Shown: positions 1 to 57,764, counted from the first letter of the stretch. The stretch is DNA of 64,000 nt from Eledone cirrhosa (GCA_964016885.1 OZ024740.1:187798001-187862000), one strand, 5' to 3'. Numbers and translations are program-made. Notes: generated from the letters alone by a model not told the origin.

Positions 1-67
1 GTACGGAACCAGATGGATCATAACGCACCAAAGTACTCAATACTTAGGGTAGTAGAGTGGGTAATAC

Positions 68-87
68 TATATATATATGTATATATG

Positions 88-136: not shown

Positions 137-1543
137 CAATGAGTATAGCGAGGAATTTAGCGTACAGGTCGGTGTCCATCAGGGCTCTGTACTTAGCCCT
201 CTCCTGTTCATCATAGTCCTGCAGGCAATGACGAAGTAATTCAAGATCGGATGCCCATGGGAACTCCTGTATACAGATAAACTCGCACTTATAGCTGAAT
301 CTATGGTAGAACTAGAGAAGAAATTCCAAACTTGGAAGCAGGGACTAGAAAGAAAGGGTCTCAAAGTCAATCTGACAAAGACTAAGATCCTTGTAAGTAG
401 ACGAGCAAACAGAACCCAGATCCCCTCAGGGAAATGGCCTTGCTCAGTATGTAGGAAAGGTGTAGGTAGGAACTACATTCTCTGCCCCAAATGTAAACAA
501 ATGGTACACAAGAGATGTAGCGGGATCTCAGGAAGCTTAACTAAGAATGTAGGCTTCACATGTAACAGCTGTACTGGGACAGTAAGCAGCAAACAGCTAC
601 AGGAATAAAGTACCACCAATCTCTGGGAAGGCGCTGTAGAGACAGTAGACATCTTCTGCTACCTAGGTGACCAAATTAGCAGCAGAGGTGGGTGTTCAGA
701 AAGTACAATAACTAGGGTAAGACCGGGATGGAAGAAGTTCAGGGAGCTACTGCCACTGCTAGCTGCAAAAGGCTCTTCCCTCAAAATGAAAGGCAGACAG
801 TATGATGCGTGTATACGAACAACAATATTACATGGTAGTGAGACCTGGGCACTGAATGTGGAAGACTTGCGTAGATTAGAAAGAAACGAACCCTGCATGC
901 CCCGATGGATGTGTAATAGTAATATACGCGAACGGCAAAGCATAGATGAATTGAGAGAGAGACTGAGCATAAGAGGAATCAAATGCCGTGTGCAGGAGAG
1001 GCGGTTGCATTGGTATGGACATGTGATGCATATGAAGGATGACAGCTGCATAAAAAGTTGCAGAGTACTAGAAGTCGATGGAAACCACGGAGTGGGGAGA
1101 CCCAAGATGACCTGGGATGAGGTGATAAAAGCTGACCTTAATTAATTACACCTCTCAAAGGCGATGACATACGACCGTGACCTCTGGCTTCACGCAGTAA
1201 TACAGAGTACCTGACCCCCCACGGGTACAAGCCGAAGCTGAAGCATATAGACAATATGCCCCCACACCCTCCCACTGCAAAGTGGTCATGGGGATGCCAC
1301 GGTATAAAAGCACCCAGCCCACACTGTAAAATGGACGTGTAGGCACCACGGAAAAAAGCACCCAGCACTAACTGTAAATGAGGTTGGTGTTAGGAAGGGC
1401 ATCCGGCTGTAGAAATCAAGCCAGAATCAGTTCCCGTATGAGCAAGACAAGGTCAGCCGACCGGACACTGCCCACAACAGGACAAGCTGTCTAACCCATG
1501 CTAGCGTTGAAGAACTGACGTAAAATGGTGATGATGATGATGA
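137..1543 (+). mobile_element. RTE-clade LINE, 3' part (decayed RT + 3'UTR + (GAT)n tail)
   Basis: Translates to VGVHQGSVLSPLLF, CPWELLYTDK (degenerate YADD), FCYLGD, ILHGSETW, RRLHWYGHVMH and GRPKMTW, all RTE RT motifs. In-frame TAA at 237-239 and 606-608. 3'UTR ends in GATGATGAT. The 5' side abuts (TA)n. Confidence 0.9.
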
Positions 1544-2085: not shown

Positions 2086-2120
2086 ACACGCACACTTATA
2101 TGCATATATATATAGAGAGA

Positions 2121-3633
2121 GAGATTACAATAATCAAAGTTCAGTTTAATTCATTTATTTGCTTACAATTGTTTCCTCCAAACCGAGGTTTGGATTCTTC
2201 GGAGCAACTATTTACTGATCTATAACATACTTGACCTCCTTTTCAACCCAAGAGACACATAAAACATATGCGCATATTGATCAACAGTGGGGTGACACTC
2301 ATCAAATGATATAGCATGGCAATTTACATGTAAAGGTTACAGGATAACAATAAAAACAAAAATAAAAATAAAAGCAAGAATGAAAATAAAGATAAACATG
2401 AAGCGTTGGCAGTCTATGAAGATAAAGCAAGAGGAAAGCTTAGAGTAGTCAGTGCATGAAACAATCTCACGTGTAGCATGCACGCGTGTCTTATTTATAT
2501 ATGATTAGAGTGCGTCAGAATGATATTTGCAGGGTCAGGCAGTTGAAGCAGGCAATCGATCTTATTATGTGGGCTGAATTATTAAGTCATTTATTCTCAA
2601 ACATCTGTATGATATACAGTCTCGGATGCAGGGAAACACCAAAATATCAGAAACTTTCAACATACTATAAACCTTATTGTATCGTAGGCAAAGCCGTACC
2701 ACTGTCTTCGCTCACACCACCACTCACATAATCCATTAGACGCAATATATAGAACACGTGTCTATCGTATAATTCGCGATGGTTCAGCATATAATCAAGT
2801 TATAAACCGTATCCAGTCGGTTCTTAATTAATAGATCATGCTGTCCAGATTCCGGAAGTGTCTGAATGACTAAGGGGAATTAATGCGTAAGGGGAGGTAA
2901 CTAGCTAGTTATCTTAGTTAAATTACTATCCTAAACTACATTAATGGTGATTCAAATACGTGCCTATCATATGAAGTTATAACTAATTTCTAGAGTATGT
3001 TTCCCAATTATAGGTTAGAGAGTTGTCCATTAAGAAGTACAAGGGTGTATATATTAAGATGATTACCATGCATTAAGGGGTGTCCTATCTGAACATTCTA
3101 TAAGAGGAGTCAGACTCTCAAGTCACTGTTCCATGCAAATGTAATATAACAGTAGGACCTGGTATGGTCCCACTATTATATATGCCCCCCGGTAAGCTCC
3201 GGGTCATTGCATGTCTGAATCTCCAGTAAATCTTCGGTATGGTCCGGAGATCTAATTTCACATATAAAGGCACTAGTCTGGTCGTCAAGGAATAGACAAC
3301 CCCCATCTCATATATAAATCAATTAAGTATCACATCTACAAGTTAGAGTGGAGTCTATTAATAGGTACTAAAGGAGTTCACATCAAGATGATTACAATCT
3401 GGAGATTAAATCTCTCATACCAGGGCACCTGTCTGGCCACCAAGCAATACATAAACTCACATCCCACATATAGATCGGGTATCCCATCCACAAGCTAGAG
3501 TGGAGTCCAGTAACAAGTACTAAAGGAGTTCGTATCATGATGACTACAATCCAACATGGGGTGCCACACCTGGCCAATCCATAAGAAGAGTCAGACTACA
3601 TAATTAAGTACATGGGTCTCACTATCAGTAATG
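2121..3633 (-). repeat. PLE pseudo-LTR / 3'UTR copy 1
   Basis: Near-identical to 6830-8343 (about 10 substitutions counted by eye). Confidence 0.95.
2159..2207 (-). ncRNA. Minimal type I hammerhead ribozyme, copy 1 (variant core)
   Basis: Minus strand reads TTGCT CCGAAGA A TCCAAAC-CTCG-GTTTGGA G GAAAC AATT GTA AGCAA: stem I TTGCT/AGCAA, stem II, GAAA, palindromic stem III ACAATTGT and a GUA cleavage triplet. Confidence 0.8.
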
Positions 3634-4136
3634 GTCTTATTATCATACATGACCTCCGGCGAGATTCAGGTCGTGGTATGACTGCACACCCGGTAAATTC
3701 ACCAGGGTGGTCCGGTGGCCGGTTCTCTCGTCAAAATGTGTCGGTCAGGTCACCAGGCAACACAGAGGCTCCTAACTCATGCATCTCCTGTGCATAATTC
3801 ATTGGACTGATCGTTTACAGTATATATTCACATAACAATACGATTATCTATCTAATCATCAATCTATCTCTTGGTGGGAATCCATGCACAGGACTATGTT
3901 ATCGCAACCAGTACCGTGTCCCCGGATTATACTAGTCTTATATTTGTGCAATGCAGATTAAGTAGTCCACGGTCGAGATATCAGAATTAGAGGTACAAGG
4001 GGGTATTCCCAGGGTAGGTGGTTCTAAAGTGCTGTCAGTATTATCTTTAGAGTATACAAATGGGTGTGGATGTGAGGTGTAAGGTGAGCTACGGATGTTA
4101 ATTGCTAGGGGTGGTGCCGGTTCCAGACCGACATTA

Positions 4137-6614
4137 TTATATATAGGGTTTAAAGTTTTGGAACGAGTGTCGGAAGCGGTGTTGGCAAGTTGCGAACACT
4201 TCTGATTTTTTATTAAGGAGATTATGATTAGAGAAGATGATAGTATGGGTCTCTAGTAGACAGAGGTTACAAAATTTATTAGGTGGTTTGTACGATGTTG
4301 TACTACCTACCACTTCCCATTTAAGTGTATATATTTTATTTTTAGTTTTTAGATAGTGTATGTAGCTAGATAGTGAAGTGGAGTTGGCTAGACTGTGTTT
4401 TTTGAAAGAGTGGAGGTGCGAATTGTATCTAGTTTTGAAGAAGTTAGAAGTAGAGCCTATATAGGTTTCAGAAGAGTTGTTAGTTGTGACTGTACATGAG
4501 TATATGATATCCTTGGTTAATAATTTGTTATCTAAAGGGCAGGTTCTACCTGATCTACAGTTACAATTACTCTGGGTGCTAGTCTGCCGGTTACTATGCT
4601 GTGTAGAAGTTTGGATGTTAGCTATAGGGTTATGGTTATGTGGGTTGTGGTACGCGGCGTTAATGTTTACACTAATGCTATTACTATTATTTCCATTGAT
4701 ATTACGGCTATTTGCTATAATGTTACTTTGACTGTTATTTTGAATGTTATTTTGAAGGTTTATCGACTTTTGTGATTTAGTTTGTTGGAAGTAAGAATTA
4801 ATTTTTCTTTTATTTGTACTAGCTATGTGGTATGCTAAGTTAGGCGTAGTAGAGTAAGAGATCTTAATAGTGTTTTTGTTTAAAAGGCCGTGGTACCTGT
4901 GGCCGGATGGGAAGTGTTTATCTAGTAGTGAGAAGAAAGCCCTAGGTAGGTTGGTGGAGACGTTTAAATTGAAAGGAGGGTTGAAAAATGTATTATTTCT
5001 TCTTCTATTTCTGTTTTTTATGTCTGGTGATTTCTTTCCTTTAATGTTCCTATGGTCATTTTTGTGGTGCGGGTTACTTTTGTTGTTACAATCCCTATTA
5101 GTGTGTGTGCAGTTGCTATTCCTATTGTTATATTTTCCCATGAACATGTGTGAAATGATGCTGTAGCTATGTGTTTTTGTAGGTAGGAACTCTATCCCTG
5201 TATTATGGCCTGATCTAGCTAATGCCTGATTATAATACTGAGAGTTATTGTTAAATGTGTTTATGTCATAGGATAGATTAGAGATTCTATTAGATACTCC
5301 CTTAGAGATAGAGTTCAATATAGATTTAGGGTGATTAGACTTGGTATCTACGTAGATGAGTTTTTCATTAGGTTTGTGGAAAGGTGCATATATCATTGAG
5401 TCTAGGTAGAGTGTGGCGTCTAGGAAGTTGACGTTGTTTGTGTTTTTGTCCATGGTAATACTAAGGTTAAAGTTTTTGAATGTTTTGTGCAATAGTTTTC
5501 TAGTCCTTTCTATATTGAATTTTTTATAGTCTATAAGTAGAAGTGCATCGTCGCGATACAAACCACCGCTGAGGTACGGAAGTTCCCTGTGGATTTGGTT
5601 AAGTAAGTATAGGCCAACTAAATCAGTGACCTGCGCCGAGTCACTAGACCCCATAGTAATGTCGAAGTTGTTTTGCGTGTCCTTGCGGGTCCATAATTGG
5701 TCTTCAAAGGTGATTATTGTTTTACGGGCCGCAAGTATGACATCAATCTGGGGTCTAGTCAAGTCACTATTGTCCATGGCCATTATAAGTGCCTTATTTA
5801 GTAGGATAGGGGAAATAGAGGTGTAGTAAGAGTTGATATCAAATTGAATAAATTTTTTTATCCTTGTTATCTATGATATTTTTGAACCATTCAATCACTT
5901 CACCCGTATTTCCCCATTGTTTAAGGTAAATCTTGTGTTTAATCTGTGGGATGATTTTGTCTAGAATTTTTTTACTGATAATGCCAATGTCAAACCTGGA
6001 GGGGCAGATTAGTCTAATCGAGGGGTTGTTAATGAAGTCTACCTTATGGTCCTTCAGAGAGAATCTAGGGGGGGGGTGTAAGGTTGTGTATGTCTCTGGA
6101 GCCCTAGTTTGGATACTATATTATAGCCTTCCATATTAATATCTTCTAAGTTTTTCATAGTGGTTTTCTTGTAGCTTTTATGTAGTTCATTATATATAAA
6201 CTTTCTATACGTATTATAATCTAGGCTGTATATGTTATTAGTTTTGTCGGCATGTACAAAAATGTTACTACTAGTTTTGAAGTCATTAATAGAGGTGCTA
6301 AGTTTGTTTAAGAAGGTGTTGTTTTTATTATGGTGTTTTTTGTATTTAATGTTTTTAACTAGTTTAATTAGGTCGTTTTCGAAGTGGTTTAGTAGTGTGT
6401 TATGAGGGGGGATTCTAAATGTTTTAAAGCCGAAGGAGTCAAATTTGTTGGTGTTATTATCCTTGCCAGATTTGTTTCTATCATAATGGAATGTCCTCCA
6501 TCTCACTCTATTGATAAAGAAGTTTACACTGTTGATCAACAACTTTTCATATGTATTTTTCGTTGGTAAAGGTATGTTCTTGGTTGACATAGGGAGTTGG
6601 TCTTTGATCAGCAT
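4137..6614 (-). pseudogene. PLE reverse transcriptase + GIY-YIG endonuclease (two compensating frameshifts; 825 aa if repaired)
   Basis: Motifs ADKTNNIY, LKDHK..IRLICP, FIQFDINSYYTSI, MGSSDSAQVTDLVG, GLYRDDAL, NFLDATL, CNCRSGRTCPL, IIYSCTV..TYIGST..FKTRYNSH, CNLCLLE, LLNKKSE..CQH. ORFs 6054-6614 and 4137-5783 share a frame; the ~70 codons between G9 (6068-6076) and T7 (5853-5859) are in another frame. Confidence 0.92.
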
Positions 6615-6829
6615 GCTGGTAATTTATGGTATATCAGCTCAACAAAATGGAGCAGTTATTAGTATTAAGGGTACTATTTATGGTTATGTATGTAATAAAA
6701 CCTTTAATGGTAATATATGATATATACAAACCTTAAATAGTGAAAGATAGTCATTAATTACTATCCTATTACCAGTAAGATAAATAGCTCAATGTAATAA
6801 CATCAGTTGTTTTACAGAGCAGTTATATA

Positions 6830-8343
6830 GAGATTACAATAATCAAAGTTCAGTTTAAGTCATTTATTTGCTTACAATTGTTTCCTCCAAACCGAGGTTT
6901 GGATTCTTCGGAGCAACTATTTACTGATCTATAACATACTTGACCTCCTTTTCAACCCAAGAGACACATAAAACATATGCGCATATTGATCAACAGTGGG
7001 GTGACACTCATCAAATGATATAGCATGGCAATTTACATGTAAAGGTTACAGGATAACAATAAAAACAAAAATAAAAATAAAAGCAAGAATGAAAATAAAG
7101 ATAAACATGAAGCGTTGGCAGTCTATGAAGATAAAGCAAGAGGAAAGCTTAGAGTAGTCAGTGCATGAAACAATCTCACGTGTAGCATGCACGCGTGTCT
7201 TATTTATATATGATTAGAGTGCGTCAGAATGATATTTGCAGGGTCAGGCAGTTGAAGCAGGCAATCGATCTTATTATGTGGGCTGAATTATTAAGTCATT
7301 TATTCTCAAACATCTGTATGATATACAGTCTCGGATGCAGGGAAACACCAAAATATCAGAAACTTTCAACATACTATAAACCTTATTGTATCGTAGGCAA
7401 AGCCGTACCACTGTCTTCGCTCACACCACCACTCACATAATCCATGAGACGCAATATATAGAACACGTGTCTATCGTATAATTCGCGATGGTTCAGCATA
7501 TAATCAAGTTATAAACCGTATCCAGTCGGTTCTTAATTAATAGATCATGCTGTCCAGATTCCGGAAGTGTCTGAATGACTAAGGGGAATTAATGCGTAAG
7601 GGGAGGTAACTAGCTAGTTATCTTAGTTAAATTACTATCCTAAACTACATTAATGGAGATTCAAATACGTGCCTATCATATGAAGTTATAACTAATTTCT
7701 AGAGTATGTTTCCCAATTATAGGTTAGAGAGTTGTCCATTAAGAAGTACAAGGGTGTATATATTAAGATGATTACCATACATTAAGGGGTGTCCTATCTG
7801 AACATTCTATAAGAGGAGTCAGACTCTCAAGTCACTGTTCCATGCAAATGTAATATAACAGTAGGACCTGGTATGGTCCCACTATTATATATGCCCCCCA
7901 GTAGGCTCCGGGTCATTGCATGTCTGAATCTCCGGTAAATCTTCGGTATGGTCCGGAGATCTAATTTCACATATAAAGGCACTAGTCTGGTCGTCAAGGA
8001 ATAGACAACCCCCATCTCATATATAAATCAATTAAGTATCACATCTACAAGTTAGAGTGGAGTCTATTAATAGGTACTAAAGGAGTTCACATCAAGATGA
8101 TTACAATCTGGAGATTAAATCTCTCATACCAGGGCACCTGTCTGGCCACCAAGCAATACATAAACTCACATCCCACATATAGATCGGGTATCCCATCCAC
8201 AAGCTAGAGTGGAGTCCAGTAACAAGTACTAAAGGAGTTTGTATCATGATGACTACAATCCAACATGGGGTGCCACACCCGGCCAATCCATAAGAAGAGT
8301 CAGACTACATAATTAACTACATGGGTCTCACTATCAGTAATGG
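6830..8343 (-). repeat. PLE pseudo-LTR copy 2 (upstream partial tandem copy)
   Basis: Direct repeat of 2121-3633; the ORF track shows the same short ORFs at offset 4709. Confidence 0.95.
6868..6916 (-). ncRNA. Minimal type I hammerhead ribozyme, copy 2
   Basis: Identical to 2159-2207; lies about 250 nt upstream of the RT start codon. Confidence 0.8.
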
Positions 8344-8568
8344 AGGAAACAATTGTAAGCAAATAAATGACTTAAACTGAACTTTGATTATTGTAATCTC
8401 TATATAACTGCTCTGTAAAACAACTGATGTTATTACATTGAGCTATTTATGTTACTGGTAATAGGATTGTAATTAATGACTATCTTTCACTATTTAAGGT
8501 TTGTATATATAATATATTACCATTAAAGGTTTTATTACATACATAACCATAAATAGTACCCTTAATAC

Positions 8569-8570
<2 letters not shown>
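8341..8570 (+). repeat. Inverted PLE segment (reverse complement of 6660-6889)
   Basis: TGGAGGAAACAATTGTAAGC...CCCTTAATACTA is the reverse complement of 6660-6889, with about 3 mismatches. Confidence 0.95.
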
Positions 8571-8606
<36 letters not shown>

Positions 8607-8667
8607 CTCTAACCACTTAGCCACACCGTTTCACTAGATATATATCTATATATATATATTTATATAT

Positions 8668-8710: not shown

Positions 8711-8935
8711 TTTACATTCATTTAAATTATTAATTTATTGATATTTTTTATCTGAGTGTCCCGAATCTTCTGTTATCGATTTTTTATCGTGCGGTTGATT
8801 TTAGACTTGTTCTATGTGTGACGGTATTTTAACGATAGTTATAGCTCTGATTTATCTGAATTATTGAGCCCTCTGCCGCTCATTTCGAATTTTGTTTATC
8901 GTGAACTCGTGCGCCGATTTTTCGATACTCGATCA

Positions 8936-50341: not shown

Positions 50342-51660
50342 TCTTCAGCATTATGTTGTACTTCTGCCAGTATTTTGATAGTGAAATATTAAGCTATCTA
50401 TTGCAGCCATGGTATCTAGCACTTTTCTTATGGTTTTGCTATGCCAAACAAATAAGCTTTCTCTAGAGTCAGGAAATACATTTATATATTCAATATCTTC
50501 AATCAACCATTCGAACTCCCTAAGGCTCCTATTACAATTGGGATAGCAATTCTGTGGCAGTTCCAAATTCTCAGAAGTTCATCTTTCACATCTTGGAATT
50601 TTTCTATTTTCTCGTGTTCTTTTGTCTACCATTGTATTATCAAACAGGCAAACAAATCGATGATTCAACACACATTATCCTCTTTATTGAGTATAACAAT
50701 ATCAGGTTATGATGCTCCATTCACTTATCCATTTGAATCTTCATGTCCTTTGGTACATTTCCATGGTTGTTTTCAAAGACACAGTTTGGTTTCTGGTCAT
50801 ACCTCTTTTTCACATTCAAATACAACTTTTTTCGTGCATTCACAAATGTGAAATTGTACCAACTGAGATTGCTTCTTTATGTTTTTTCTGCTGTATCTCA
50901 TTTTGATTGCTTAATCCTACATAGTTAAGATTAGAACAATCTTCTTTAGACACTGGAAATACTTCTTATTCCAATGCCCTTCAGTATTTTGGAAAAACAT
51001 TACATCTAAGCTTTCCTGCTCATATCGTTACTTTCTAAATTTCAGTACTTCACTTTTTCCCTTTCCTTCACTTAATATCTCCTCTTATAATCTTGCTGTA
51101 AAAAGTTCCTTTTCACTATCAGCAATATATTTCCTCAGCCATTCCCCTTCTAGCCTCACATAATCTTCTAAATTTATCAGGCCATGTCCCTCTTTTCTGT
51201 TAAAATATAGCTTGTTGACATCTGCCTGTGGATGTAAAGCTCTGATAATTTCTTTACCTTCCTTGTCATCCTTCTTTTTCTAACTAACATCGCAAGATCT
51301 CCCTTTTTAATTTAATTATTCCCCTACTATATCTGATGATGTGCTGTGGAGTTTATGGTATTGGTGGTATTTATCTCATTGTGTTTGGATTTTAATGTTC
51401 TCTTTATCCTTTGAAAATACTCTTTCCAGATGTTCTTTCTTTATTCCATCCCTTATACAATCAAACCCAAAGCCCCTAGTTATTTATATACATCATCTAA
51501 GACAATCCTCCAGATATTTGTTTTGTTTGGTAGATTTATCTCATCACTTTTATGGTTTTTGCCTCTCTTCAGCATAAGAAGTTCATATTTGGAAAATACA
51601 CATTATTGTTGTTACCCCTCTTTTTACAAGTACATCCCAAGTACTCTCCATCAAGTTATA
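50341..51660 (-). mobile_element. R4/Dong-like RLE non-LTR retrotransposon relic
   Basis: Minus-strand peptide remnants HPQADVNKLYFNRKEGHGLINLED, YDQKPNCVFEN, PDIVILNKEDNVC*IID, IEKFQDVKDELLRIW, IPIVIGALG, TIRKVLD; followed by (TAA)n. Confidence 0.75.
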
Positions 51661-56315: not shown

Positions 56316-56350
56316 GATAGATATATATATATAAATATATATATATATAA
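56221..56350. repeat. (CT)n + (TA)n microsatellite
   Basis: Direct reading. Confidence 0.95.
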
Positions 56351-57764
56351 GTATTGAAGTTTCCGTTGAAAATTGAAAAAGTCATAGGAGTGAAGAGTGC
56401 TCTATGTAAGTACCAGAGCTAAATTTAATGTATAATAAACAATACAATATAATTACCTCATTACCAGAGGTTTCCCGAATAAGATGAATACGAAAAACGT
56501 CCTCATTTGTTCATCGAACAAGGCAATTTAAAACATAGTGAAATATTTGAAAAATCTCCTCAAGAAAGGCAAGAGTTTAACGGGCAAAAAAAATAAAGCA
56601 AGAGATATATAAAAATAAGGAAATATAGTTAGGGTATGTGTATAAATGTGTATATATTCACTCACAAATGTACATATGTGTGTATGTACAAATGCATGTG
56701 TATAGTGAAAATGTGTGTGTGCGTAAGTACGTATATGAGGGCAAGCATAATAGTGTATGTGTGACCAATACGTATATAATATAAGTTGAAAAATAATGTA
56801 CATCCAGATTTATGTATTAAATATATACACATACAAGTATGAAAGCACGCGTATAAACACACATGCTCAATCATTTATATGCGGGAGATAAAAAGGGAAG
56901 GGAGTGTATTAGTAAAAAAGAGTGTCATATTCGATACATATAAAAATGAAACAATATATGAGAAAGAAAAAACTTTTGTTTAAATCAATTAACACTAGAG
57001 AATAAGAAAACAAACATAGGTTTGCAAGTACGCACATATACATATAAAAATATATATATATGAATACGTACATGCAAAAGCGCATGCATACGTACATACA
57101 TACACACGAAGCACACATATATATATACATATATCGGCACACTTATATCTAAGCACATGTACGTACGCAACTATATACATACATATATGCATACACACAC
57201 ATACATACATATTCATATATATATACACATACTTATACACATACGTTCACCCACCTACACACACTCGTATAAATATAGATATAAAAACACACATGCTCAC
57301 ACATATAGACACGCACACATACGGAGGCGCATGCACACTCACACTCATAGATATAAAATATAGACCAGCCATATGAAAAAAAAAAAGAAATACAAATATA
57401 AAAGCGGCTGCGAAACAACAGAATATATCTGGATTTGAAAACGCAAGTGACATGTGATATCAGGTAATGAAAGAAAATGGGGAAGTAAAGTGTGGAATGT
57501 GAAGATATTAGGTAAGTGAATAAAAATTAGGGGGGGGGGGGGGGGCTTTCACTGGTGGATGTGAAGTGAAAATAAAAATGAAAGTAAATCAGAAAGAGAA
57601 GTCTGTAAAGAGGATAATTTAAGGAAAGTGAAGAACAAGAGTTTATGGAGGATAAGTATCTGAAATGAGTTAAGTTTATATTAGCTGGAAAGCAAGTGTG
57701 ATTTCATGTGTGGGCAACTGGAGAAAATTTCTGTTTTTGTATTTAGGCAGGTATTAGTCAACAC

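Follow-up and report, generated by a model that had tools for sequence, protein, structure and literature searches.

A Hydra-type Penelope-like element of Eledone cirrhosa with variant-core hammerhead motifs and leader hairpins beside its 3′ ends

We analyzed a 64,000-nt stretch of the Eledone cirrhosa genome (GCA_964016885.1 OZ024740.1:187798001-187862000; here called the window), in which an initial annotation, made from the sequence alone, had described a retroelement unit bracketed by two hammerhead ribozymes. Self-comparison of the window revealed a direct repeat of 1515 nt at 2120-3634 and 6829-8343, with 99.34% identity (10 mismatches) and one hammerhead motif in each copy. These repeats are the pseudo-long terminal repeats (pLTRs) of one young Penelope-like element (PLE) of the Hydra clade, which lies on the minus strand. 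The upstream pLTR (6829-8343) is a 5′-truncated repeat of the 3′ untranslated region (UTR) and the hammerhead, and the downstream pLTR (2120-3634), which has no leader hairpin of the kind described below, stops within (CT)n/(TA)n at a point 44 nt beyond the predicted cut. The self-comparison also found a 5′-truncated inverted copy of 230 nt on the plus strand (8341-8570, equal to 6889-6660), which begins in the 3′ arm of helix II of the hammerhead, crosses the cut site, contains the first leader hairpin at 8410-8443, and ends in (TA)n. It is joined to the main copy through a 3-nt overlap. The 169 nt that separate the two 3′ ends (6660-6828, minus strand) form the tail, which is found in the inverted copy only. 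Both outer flanks are (TA)n, as expected for Hydra-clade insertions: (TA)n/(GA)n at 2098-2119 beside the main 3′ end and (TA)n at 8571-8607 at the end of the inverted copy. The layout of inverted copy, pLTR, open reading frame (ORF), and pLTR within a (TA)n target is the textbook PLE arrangement, and the insertion measures 6224 nt, or 1.32 units.

The hammerhead motifs, at 6868-6916 (upstream) and 2159-2207 (downstream) on the minus strand, are 49 nt long and identical letter for letter. In the upstream copy, a helix I of 5 bp pairs 6916-6912 with 6872-6868, the core CCGAAGA lies at 6911-6905, and positions 10.1 and 11.1 are occupied by A (6904) and G (6885). Helix II has 7 bp and a 4-nt loop and is followed by GAAA, the palindrome ACAAUUGU, and the GUA triplet; helix III has 2 bp in a monomer and 8 bp in a dimer. 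Three helices around a core with an NUH triplet give the type I topology, and the consensus core CUGANGA...GAAA is broken by a C at position 4 (U4C). The predicted cuts, 6873/6872 and 2164/2163, are 4709 nt apart and define a unit of that length. An AG immediately before helix I (6918-6917) resembles the Drosophila intron end, but chance alone would be expected to produce it. The window sequence, the self-comparison, and the motif anatomy thus bore out most of what had been claimed initially, namely the identical type I motifs, U4C and the A.G at the closing pair of stem II, the palindromic stem III, the cuts and their spacing, and the retroelement context. The claim of a pair stands in that both motifs are present, but they are not independent. 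Because one sequence was duplicated within the 1515-nt repeat, their identity is no evidence of conservation, and two hammerheads in two pLTRs are, as a bare observation, ordinary. A relaxed descriptor that allows any base at position 4, composed after the motif had been seen, matched only these two sites in 64 kb. When the 4709-nt unit was shuffled 2000 times with its dinucleotides preserved, 2 of the shuffled sequences matched. The relaxed-threshold model search suggested by the initial annotation found no Rfam hammerhead at E ≤ 10 in the window and nothing else relevant. Rfam at E ≤ 1 likewise returned nothing in seven related loci with mostly CUGA-core motifs, so the miss is not due to C4.

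The minus-strand ORF at 4137-6614, with its start at an ATG at 6614 or 6590, encodes a reverse transcriptase (RT) with a C-terminal GIY-YIG domain. As had been proposed, it lies entirely within the 4709-nt unit, but two homopolymer runs, C9 at 6068-6076 and A7 at 5853-5859, each carry a frameshift that interrupts it. Other copies in public sequencing runs differ by indels at these two positions, and the frameshifts are either assembly errors or recent decay. The RT motif YRDD is invariant across the protein alignment; RWR and DKT are present in the N-terminal piece, RWR being found also in the relatives P0002, P0003, and P0006. The linker reads CNCRSGRTC (CxCX5C), and CNLC..E and CQH, of the CxxC and CxH types, stand around the last E and N. 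CCHH is absent from the protein, as judged by eye in the alignment. GIY-YIG (PF01541) was placed at residues 462-519, C-terminal to the RT, by a match (E = 0.0032) weaker than the curated cut-off. The published marks of the Hydra clade are RW(R/K), DKT in place of DKG, the CxCX5C linker, CxxC, CxH, the absence of CCHH, and GIY-YIG at the C terminus (Craig et al. 2021, PMC8557442).

The best protein relatives, some of them from Argonauta, share 35-39% identity with it. In a quick tree of 38 rows, with a distant outgroup and no named Hydra reference sequences, the window protein grouped with 8 proteins (3 from Argonauta) apart from 28 others, with a support of 100. Motifs and architecture together match those of the Hydra clade of PLEs with a C-terminal endonuclease. 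Membership in Naiad or Chlamys was ruled out by domain order, GIY-YIG being C-terminal rather than N-terminal, and membership among the non-LTR retrozymes was ruled out by the 4.7-kb coding unit, as opposed to a small non-coding tandem unit. With the published Hydra clade (PMC8557442) the element shares the protein motifs, the (TA)n target, a hammerhead near the 3′ end with a palindromic helix III, and the combination of pLTR, inverted copy, and tail. However, Hydra units are generally shorter than 3 kb with a single ORF and have tails of 30 to 40 nt, compared with 4.7 kb and 169 nt here. The unit reaches 4709 nt because its 3′ UTR (2164-4136, minus strand) is 1973 nt long to the cut, about ten times the median of roughly 190 nt in relatives (range, 90 to 1138 nt; n = 60); a short unit is a typical but not a diagnostic Hydra trait.

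The rarity of the variant core was gauged against 90 related loci, 78 from metagenome and 12 from genome contigs, in which a relaxed scan found 75 distinct motifs. Those comparison loci that were included in the tree as Hydra-like belong without exception to its other, larger subclade; several are nearly identical to one another or share an assembly. C4 occurred in 2 of the 75 motifs (2 of 68 in a stricter scan), A.G in none, and both together in none. C4 relatives were seen at L154:2427-2471 (plus strand), behind an ORF of the canonical PLE type, and near 2464 of L159 (minus strand), behind a Hydra-type fragment; the hammerhead of L141 has a G at position 4. Although A.G had been noted initially as unusual, a 1x1 mismatch at 10.1/11.1 is common in the clade: U.U is found there in 33 of the 70 CU-core motifs and in many published Hydra hammerheads (File S2, PMC8557442). 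Only the identity of the A.G, not the mismatch itself, is unusual. The Hydra rows of File S2 are all CUGA, and A.G at 10.1/11.1 does not appear in that table. We found no PLE with U4C/CCGA, nor with the A.G combination, in literature that was covered in part, and a prior description is possible. In viral contigs, 120 loci matched a CCGA pattern, but a hammerhead fold was seen at none of them, and no Hydra relative was found in the viral contigs searched. Hydra-type PLEs with hammerheads were also seen in contigs filed as bacterial metagenome-assembled genomes (L199-L210), probably reflecting contamination by host DNA.

On the other hand, the window contains a third hammerhead remnant at 56451-56528 (minus strand), which had been missed initially, as had the pLTR and inverted-copy architecture and the leader hairpins. 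It has a helix I of 11 bp, a core of U3 C4 GAUGA, A10.1.G11.1, and a GUA triplet with the cut after 56462. An 11-bp helix I match was obtained in none of 200 shuffled windows. Its helices I, II, and III differ from those of the first hammerhead, and blastn of 56341-56700 against 6591-6920 found no match. A leader hairpin follows 42 nt beyond the cut, as it does in relatives (56396-56419, minus strand), scoring 34 bits (E = 6e-9) with a clade covariance model built without the window. The remnant runs out into (TA)n near 56350, 69 nt past the start of the hairpin. By its sequence, 56350-56528 is best read as the 5′-truncated remnant of a second Hydra-like family. Both oddities, C4 and A.G, therefore occur in two of two families of the window with unrelated helices, and for this reason C4/A.G looks like a lineage variant, not private decay, albeit in a small sample. 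A diverged contig of public run X2 also keeps CCGAAGA, as judged by eye. Two observations weigh against this reading: the third motif is decayed, with U at position 3 and one helix II mismatch, and the X2 contig appears to have C, not A, at 10.1.

Published data on U4C are mixed. It “considerably decreases activity in vitro,” and its activity is still enough for viroid infectivity (PMC3088659); it has been described as without effect on cleavage (PMC9608096), and U4C hammerheads occur in several viroid-like RNAs (bioRxiv 10.64898/2026.09.16.752053). In a deep scan, activity was low for variants with one mutation in the CUGA region (PMC9901934). Peach latent mosaic viroid and the viroid-like RNAs carry the same core substitution, CCGA, in a form compatible with function. 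However, those are RNA replicons, type III in the bioRxiv cases, whereas the motif here is type I, sits in a genomic retrotransposon, and is joined with A.G in two unrelated families. The rate penalties in PMC3088659 and PMC9901934 speak against an active ribozyme, and so do the predicted folds. Helix II was always formed (P about 1), and the double hammerhead is a nested fold with no pseudoknot. For two bare 49-mers joined by a 20-nt placeholder, which stands in for 4.6 kb of RNA without modeling it, the double hammerhead was the minimum-energy fold (−28.4 versus 2 × −11.6 kcal/mol), in agreement with the initial idea that the two copies could pair. With 13 to 14 nt of native flank, on the other hand, a fold that pairs C4 with G11.1 and C3 with G12 was predicted to dominate (P 0.93), sequestering all four bases, and the active form would cost 4.3 kcal/mol as a monomer and 3.3 kcal/mol as a dimer. 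Replacing C4 with U4 lowered these costs to 3.1 and 2.0 kcal/mol, respectively. The medians in relatives were 4.7 kcal/mol for monomers and 4.7 kcal/mol for dimers (n = 66). An unusual degree of misfolding from C4-G11.1 mispairing was ruled out, as the cost was equal or higher in 40 of the 66 relatives for the monomer and in 43 of the 66 for the dimer.

These data bear on the possibility that the variant no longer cuts, C4 and A.G having drifted where transposition needs no ribozyme and the fold having been kept as a protein-binding or pause structure. The rate penalty, the predicted misfold with native flanks, and the further core change to U3 in the third motif would fit such a loss, as would the success of Naiad and of most Chlamys elements, which lack canonical hammerheads. 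We nevertheless consider it improbable, since GA-N-GA, GAAAC, and GUA are kept in two families with unrelated helices and U4C is viable in a viroid.

The leader of the element provides a second line of evidence. The 3′ end of the main copy is equivalent to 6829, 44 nt past the cut and just 5′ of leader hairpin 1 (6787-6820, minus strand; 52 nt beyond the cut, z = −2.6), and that of the inverted copy is equivalent to 6660, 213 nt past the cut and 6 nt 5′ of leader hairpin 2 (6637-6653, minus strand). Both ends precede the same 10-mer, which opens a hairpin of the form GCUC, inner helix, UU bulge, GAGC. For comparison, 24 of 200000 position pairs drawn at random from the unit agreed as well as this, and so did 36 of 23005 pairs in the leader. 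Among relatives with at least 120 nt available upstream of the ORF, the hairpin was present there in 41 of 47 loci. Among the controls, it occurred in 27 of 2350 shuffled sequences, in 3 of 164 windows taken from ORFs, and on 4 of 47 reverse strands. It usually ends in GAGCACU in these relatives and often comes in two copies. In 91 distinct copies chosen on their outer letters only, the inner pairs were formed in 86 of 90 copies at pair 1 (C-G in 57, U-A in 27), 69 of 87 at pair 2, and 44 of 62 at pair 3, against permutation means of 66.5, 35.6, and 24.9, respectively; none of 5000 permutations reached the counts observed at pairs 1 and 2. An alignment of 41 of the 82 shorter copies had 92% of its cells paired and a covariation of 0.296 (0.116 after shuffling), the four outer pairs being invariant.

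Copies of relatives also tend to end close to the hairpin. From 20 hammerhead-containing repeat pairs, 14 informative ends remained after 4 that were cut by a contig end and 2 in which both copies stop had been dropped, and 12 of the 14 lay 2 to 6 nt before the hairpin; these ends were counted by eye, and some come from one family or assembly. In 50 of 84 cases, TATA or ATAT lay within the 12 nt preceding the hairpin, compared with 5 to 11 in neighboring windows and 23 after shuffling. The ribozyme and the hairpin were spaced by 22 to 61 nt in 49 of 85 motif copies, and none of seven A-bulge type motifs had a hairpin within 75 nt. Several observations count against this pattern or against extending it to the element described here. 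Its own hairpins end in GAGCU, not GAGCACU; with the clade model, hairpin 1 scored at background level (8.3 bits, E = 8.4) and hairpin 2 near background (14.7 bits, E = 0.044), the best of 19 phage control loci reaching 13.5 bits. In addition, 2 of the 14 repeat ends (L179 and L202) do not fit. By analogy with the Anolis element discussed below, the leader hairpin likely positions internal priming of reverse transcription. The main text of PMC8557442 makes no mention of a hairpin or stem-loop, though the structure is visible at the start of the Hydra-1_Ajap consensus and at the end of the record preceding Hydra-1_Obim. A clade-wide leader hairpin was not found as described in the literature, which was covered in part, so that a prior description is possible.

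Further leader-type hairpins were seen in the window. In one at 30-68 (minus strand; 26 bits), both bases of the first outer pair differ, A-U standing in place of G-C. It lies 10 nt from a (TA)n run and has no hammerhead upstream, and the sequence runs off the window. Another, at 8834-8874 (plus strand; 20.5 bits), is located beside the inverted copy, in a segment of 230 nt with a (TA)n run on either side; no hammerhead was found upstream of it, and the segment is possibly a further short insertion. A weaker match was obtained at 50383-50425 (14.3 bits).

The products at the locus constrain the template from which they were copied. The main copy reads across an intact cut site at two places and the inverted copy at one, and all three junctions are exact, with no bases added or lost. 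From these crossings and the 1.32 units it follows, as far as sequence can tell, that the template was intact across both cut sites and was not a cut linear monomer. Non-LTR RTs are capable of template jumping, and an RT that jumped, with no ligation involved, from the 5′ end of one excised 4709-nt linear unit to the 3′ end of another would be expected to leave the same geometry. Against it stand the three exact junctions, and we regard such jumping as highly improbable. Given an active ribozyme, a ligated circle comes close to an even prospect and would be the simplest such template. Moreover, because the main copy lacks both hairpins at its 3′ end, hairpin-guided priming on a linear transcript of the locus would be unable to give an ORF-bearing copy, but on a circle it would be able to do so. 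An uncut tandem transcript, again given an active ribozyme, is a substantial possibility that falls somewhat short of even, and by analogy it agrees better with the data for the Anolis element.

That element, Poseidon PAc of Anolis carolinensis, the one PLE to have been reconstituted (Frangieh et al. 2024, PMC11167929), supplies points against a role for cleavage in making the template: ribozyme-dead RNA was still inserted, and RNA-seq gave no reads with an end at the cut. The main substrate was RNA that had not been cut, cleavage required the element's protein, and reverse transcription started internally at two sites that delimit the tail. The element described here is similar in that its tail would be bounded by two internal starts downstream of the hammerhead and that the target is AT-rich. 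However, the PAc start is an AC-rich stem-loop inside the ORF, whereas the ends here are found in the 5′ leader, next to a UA-rich stretch and a bulged hairpin that is repeated. The PAc start site is also without target homology, unlike the UA pairing that we propose, which again weighs against our proposal.

Hairpin priming could operate on the same element without a circle, if uncut multi-unit transcripts were copied and tandems were regenerated by insertion into the TA-rich leader site, the active ribozyme only trimming or turning over RNA or setting the 5′ end for translation. We see this as a distinct possibility, though on the less probable side. It would fit the normal insertion of ribozyme mutants in Anolis, the tendency of PLEs to insert into or beside existing copies (PMC6765202), the existence of relatives that keep hairpin 1 at their 3′ end and are possible linear donors (L134, L136, L158, and L179), and the fact that both products of the locus span uncut sites. 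However, it requires a donor with at least two junctions, each round would lose the hairpin unless self-insertion restored it, and the constant spacing between ribozyme and hairpin is left unexplained.

The best explanation, to which we would give an even chance, is that the variant hammerheads yield a 4709-nt unit that is ligated into a circle and copied from beside the conserved leader hairpins. In this scheme, the ribozymes would cut slowly, C4 lowering but not abolishing cleavage, and, helped by a partner copy or by the element's protein, would trim transcripts to 4709 nt. The protein would probably dock on a leader hairpin, by analogy with the Anolis element, and the nicked (TA)n target would prime on the UA-rich stretch 5′ of it; the choice of hairpin 1 or hairpin 2 would then give an end without or with the tail. 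A fuller version, which we judge rather unlikely as a whole, has three parts. A lineage of Hydra-type elements would have fixed a co-adapted C4/A10.1.G11.1 hammerhead that is kept off by C4-G11.1 pairing until a partner or protein refolds it; priming would be telomerase-like, with a docking hairpin beside a UA alignment site for (TA)n; and this would take place on a ribozyme-made 4.7-kb RNA circle, where copying for more than one turn builds the pLTRs.

Release of an exact, possibly circularizable 4709-nt unit, as proposed initially, is plausible, but it is not new, since a model in which dimers cleave and circles then form has already been put forward for elements of this kind in general (Cervera and de la Pena 2014, PMC4209133). 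The minimal PLE hammerheads of that study, for which low in vitro activity was reported, are likewise type I with a long helix II, a short helix I, a palindromic helix III, and copies in both pLTRs. Their reported variants include a U3-A8 core and a bulged base before G10.1-C11.1, and neither C4 nor A.G is among those reported in the available part of the study. Non-LTR retrozymes (PMC7229834; bioRxiv 10.64898/2026.07.22.740005) likewise carry tandem type I hammerheads and release unit-length RNAs that are circularized. However, their units are non-coding and 170 to 400 nt long, with circles shown experimentally, whereas the element here is coding and 4.7 kb long and its circle would be a predicted one.

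Several features of the element and its surroundings were noted in addition. The inverted copy starts 1 to 4 nt within the 3′ arm of helix II, at 8341, and a contig of public run X1 (joint 2190/8341) has a fold-back centered on the helix II loop, so that the RT may stall or switch at the helix II hairpin. The 3′ UTR contains an imperfect duplication with a 152-nt period at 3243-3551, about 75% identical between its copies. Reads of run X8 often depart from the element at about 2514-2519 and 2580, which suggests other subfamilies or non-autonomous elements that have only the last 400 nt in common. X8 is a restriction site-associated DNA (RAD) library, whose read begin and end peaks are uninformative on RNA ends, and read depths of public runs on the element are not copy numbers. 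No RNA run was among the public runs listed as containing the element. None of 40 listed base differences (of 1362) in public-run reads fell within either motif, an observation too weak to count as support. Elsewhere in the window, RT and 3′ region fragments at 240-1145 (plus strand) are presumably LINE-like (long interspersed nuclear element), and a repeated family at 1352, 1944, 9578, 13182, and 36307 is one that we take to be SINE-like (short interspersed nuclear element).

While the element and the ribozyme class are known and the dimer and circle ideas are in print, the C4/A.G variant common to two families looks new, as does a clade-wide hairpin with a probable role in priming. The C4/A.G class would escape CUGANGA descriptors, as the initial annotation had expected of strict ones. 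Counts of hammerheads in such genomes may therefore be too low, and some statements that an element lacks one may be affected in the same way. PLEs are the closest relatives of the telomerase RT. A short hairpin that covaries across the clade and lies at mapped ends gives a direct handle on how they choose their template and build pLTRs and tails, and it predicts for each genomic copy whether reproduction without circularization is possible.

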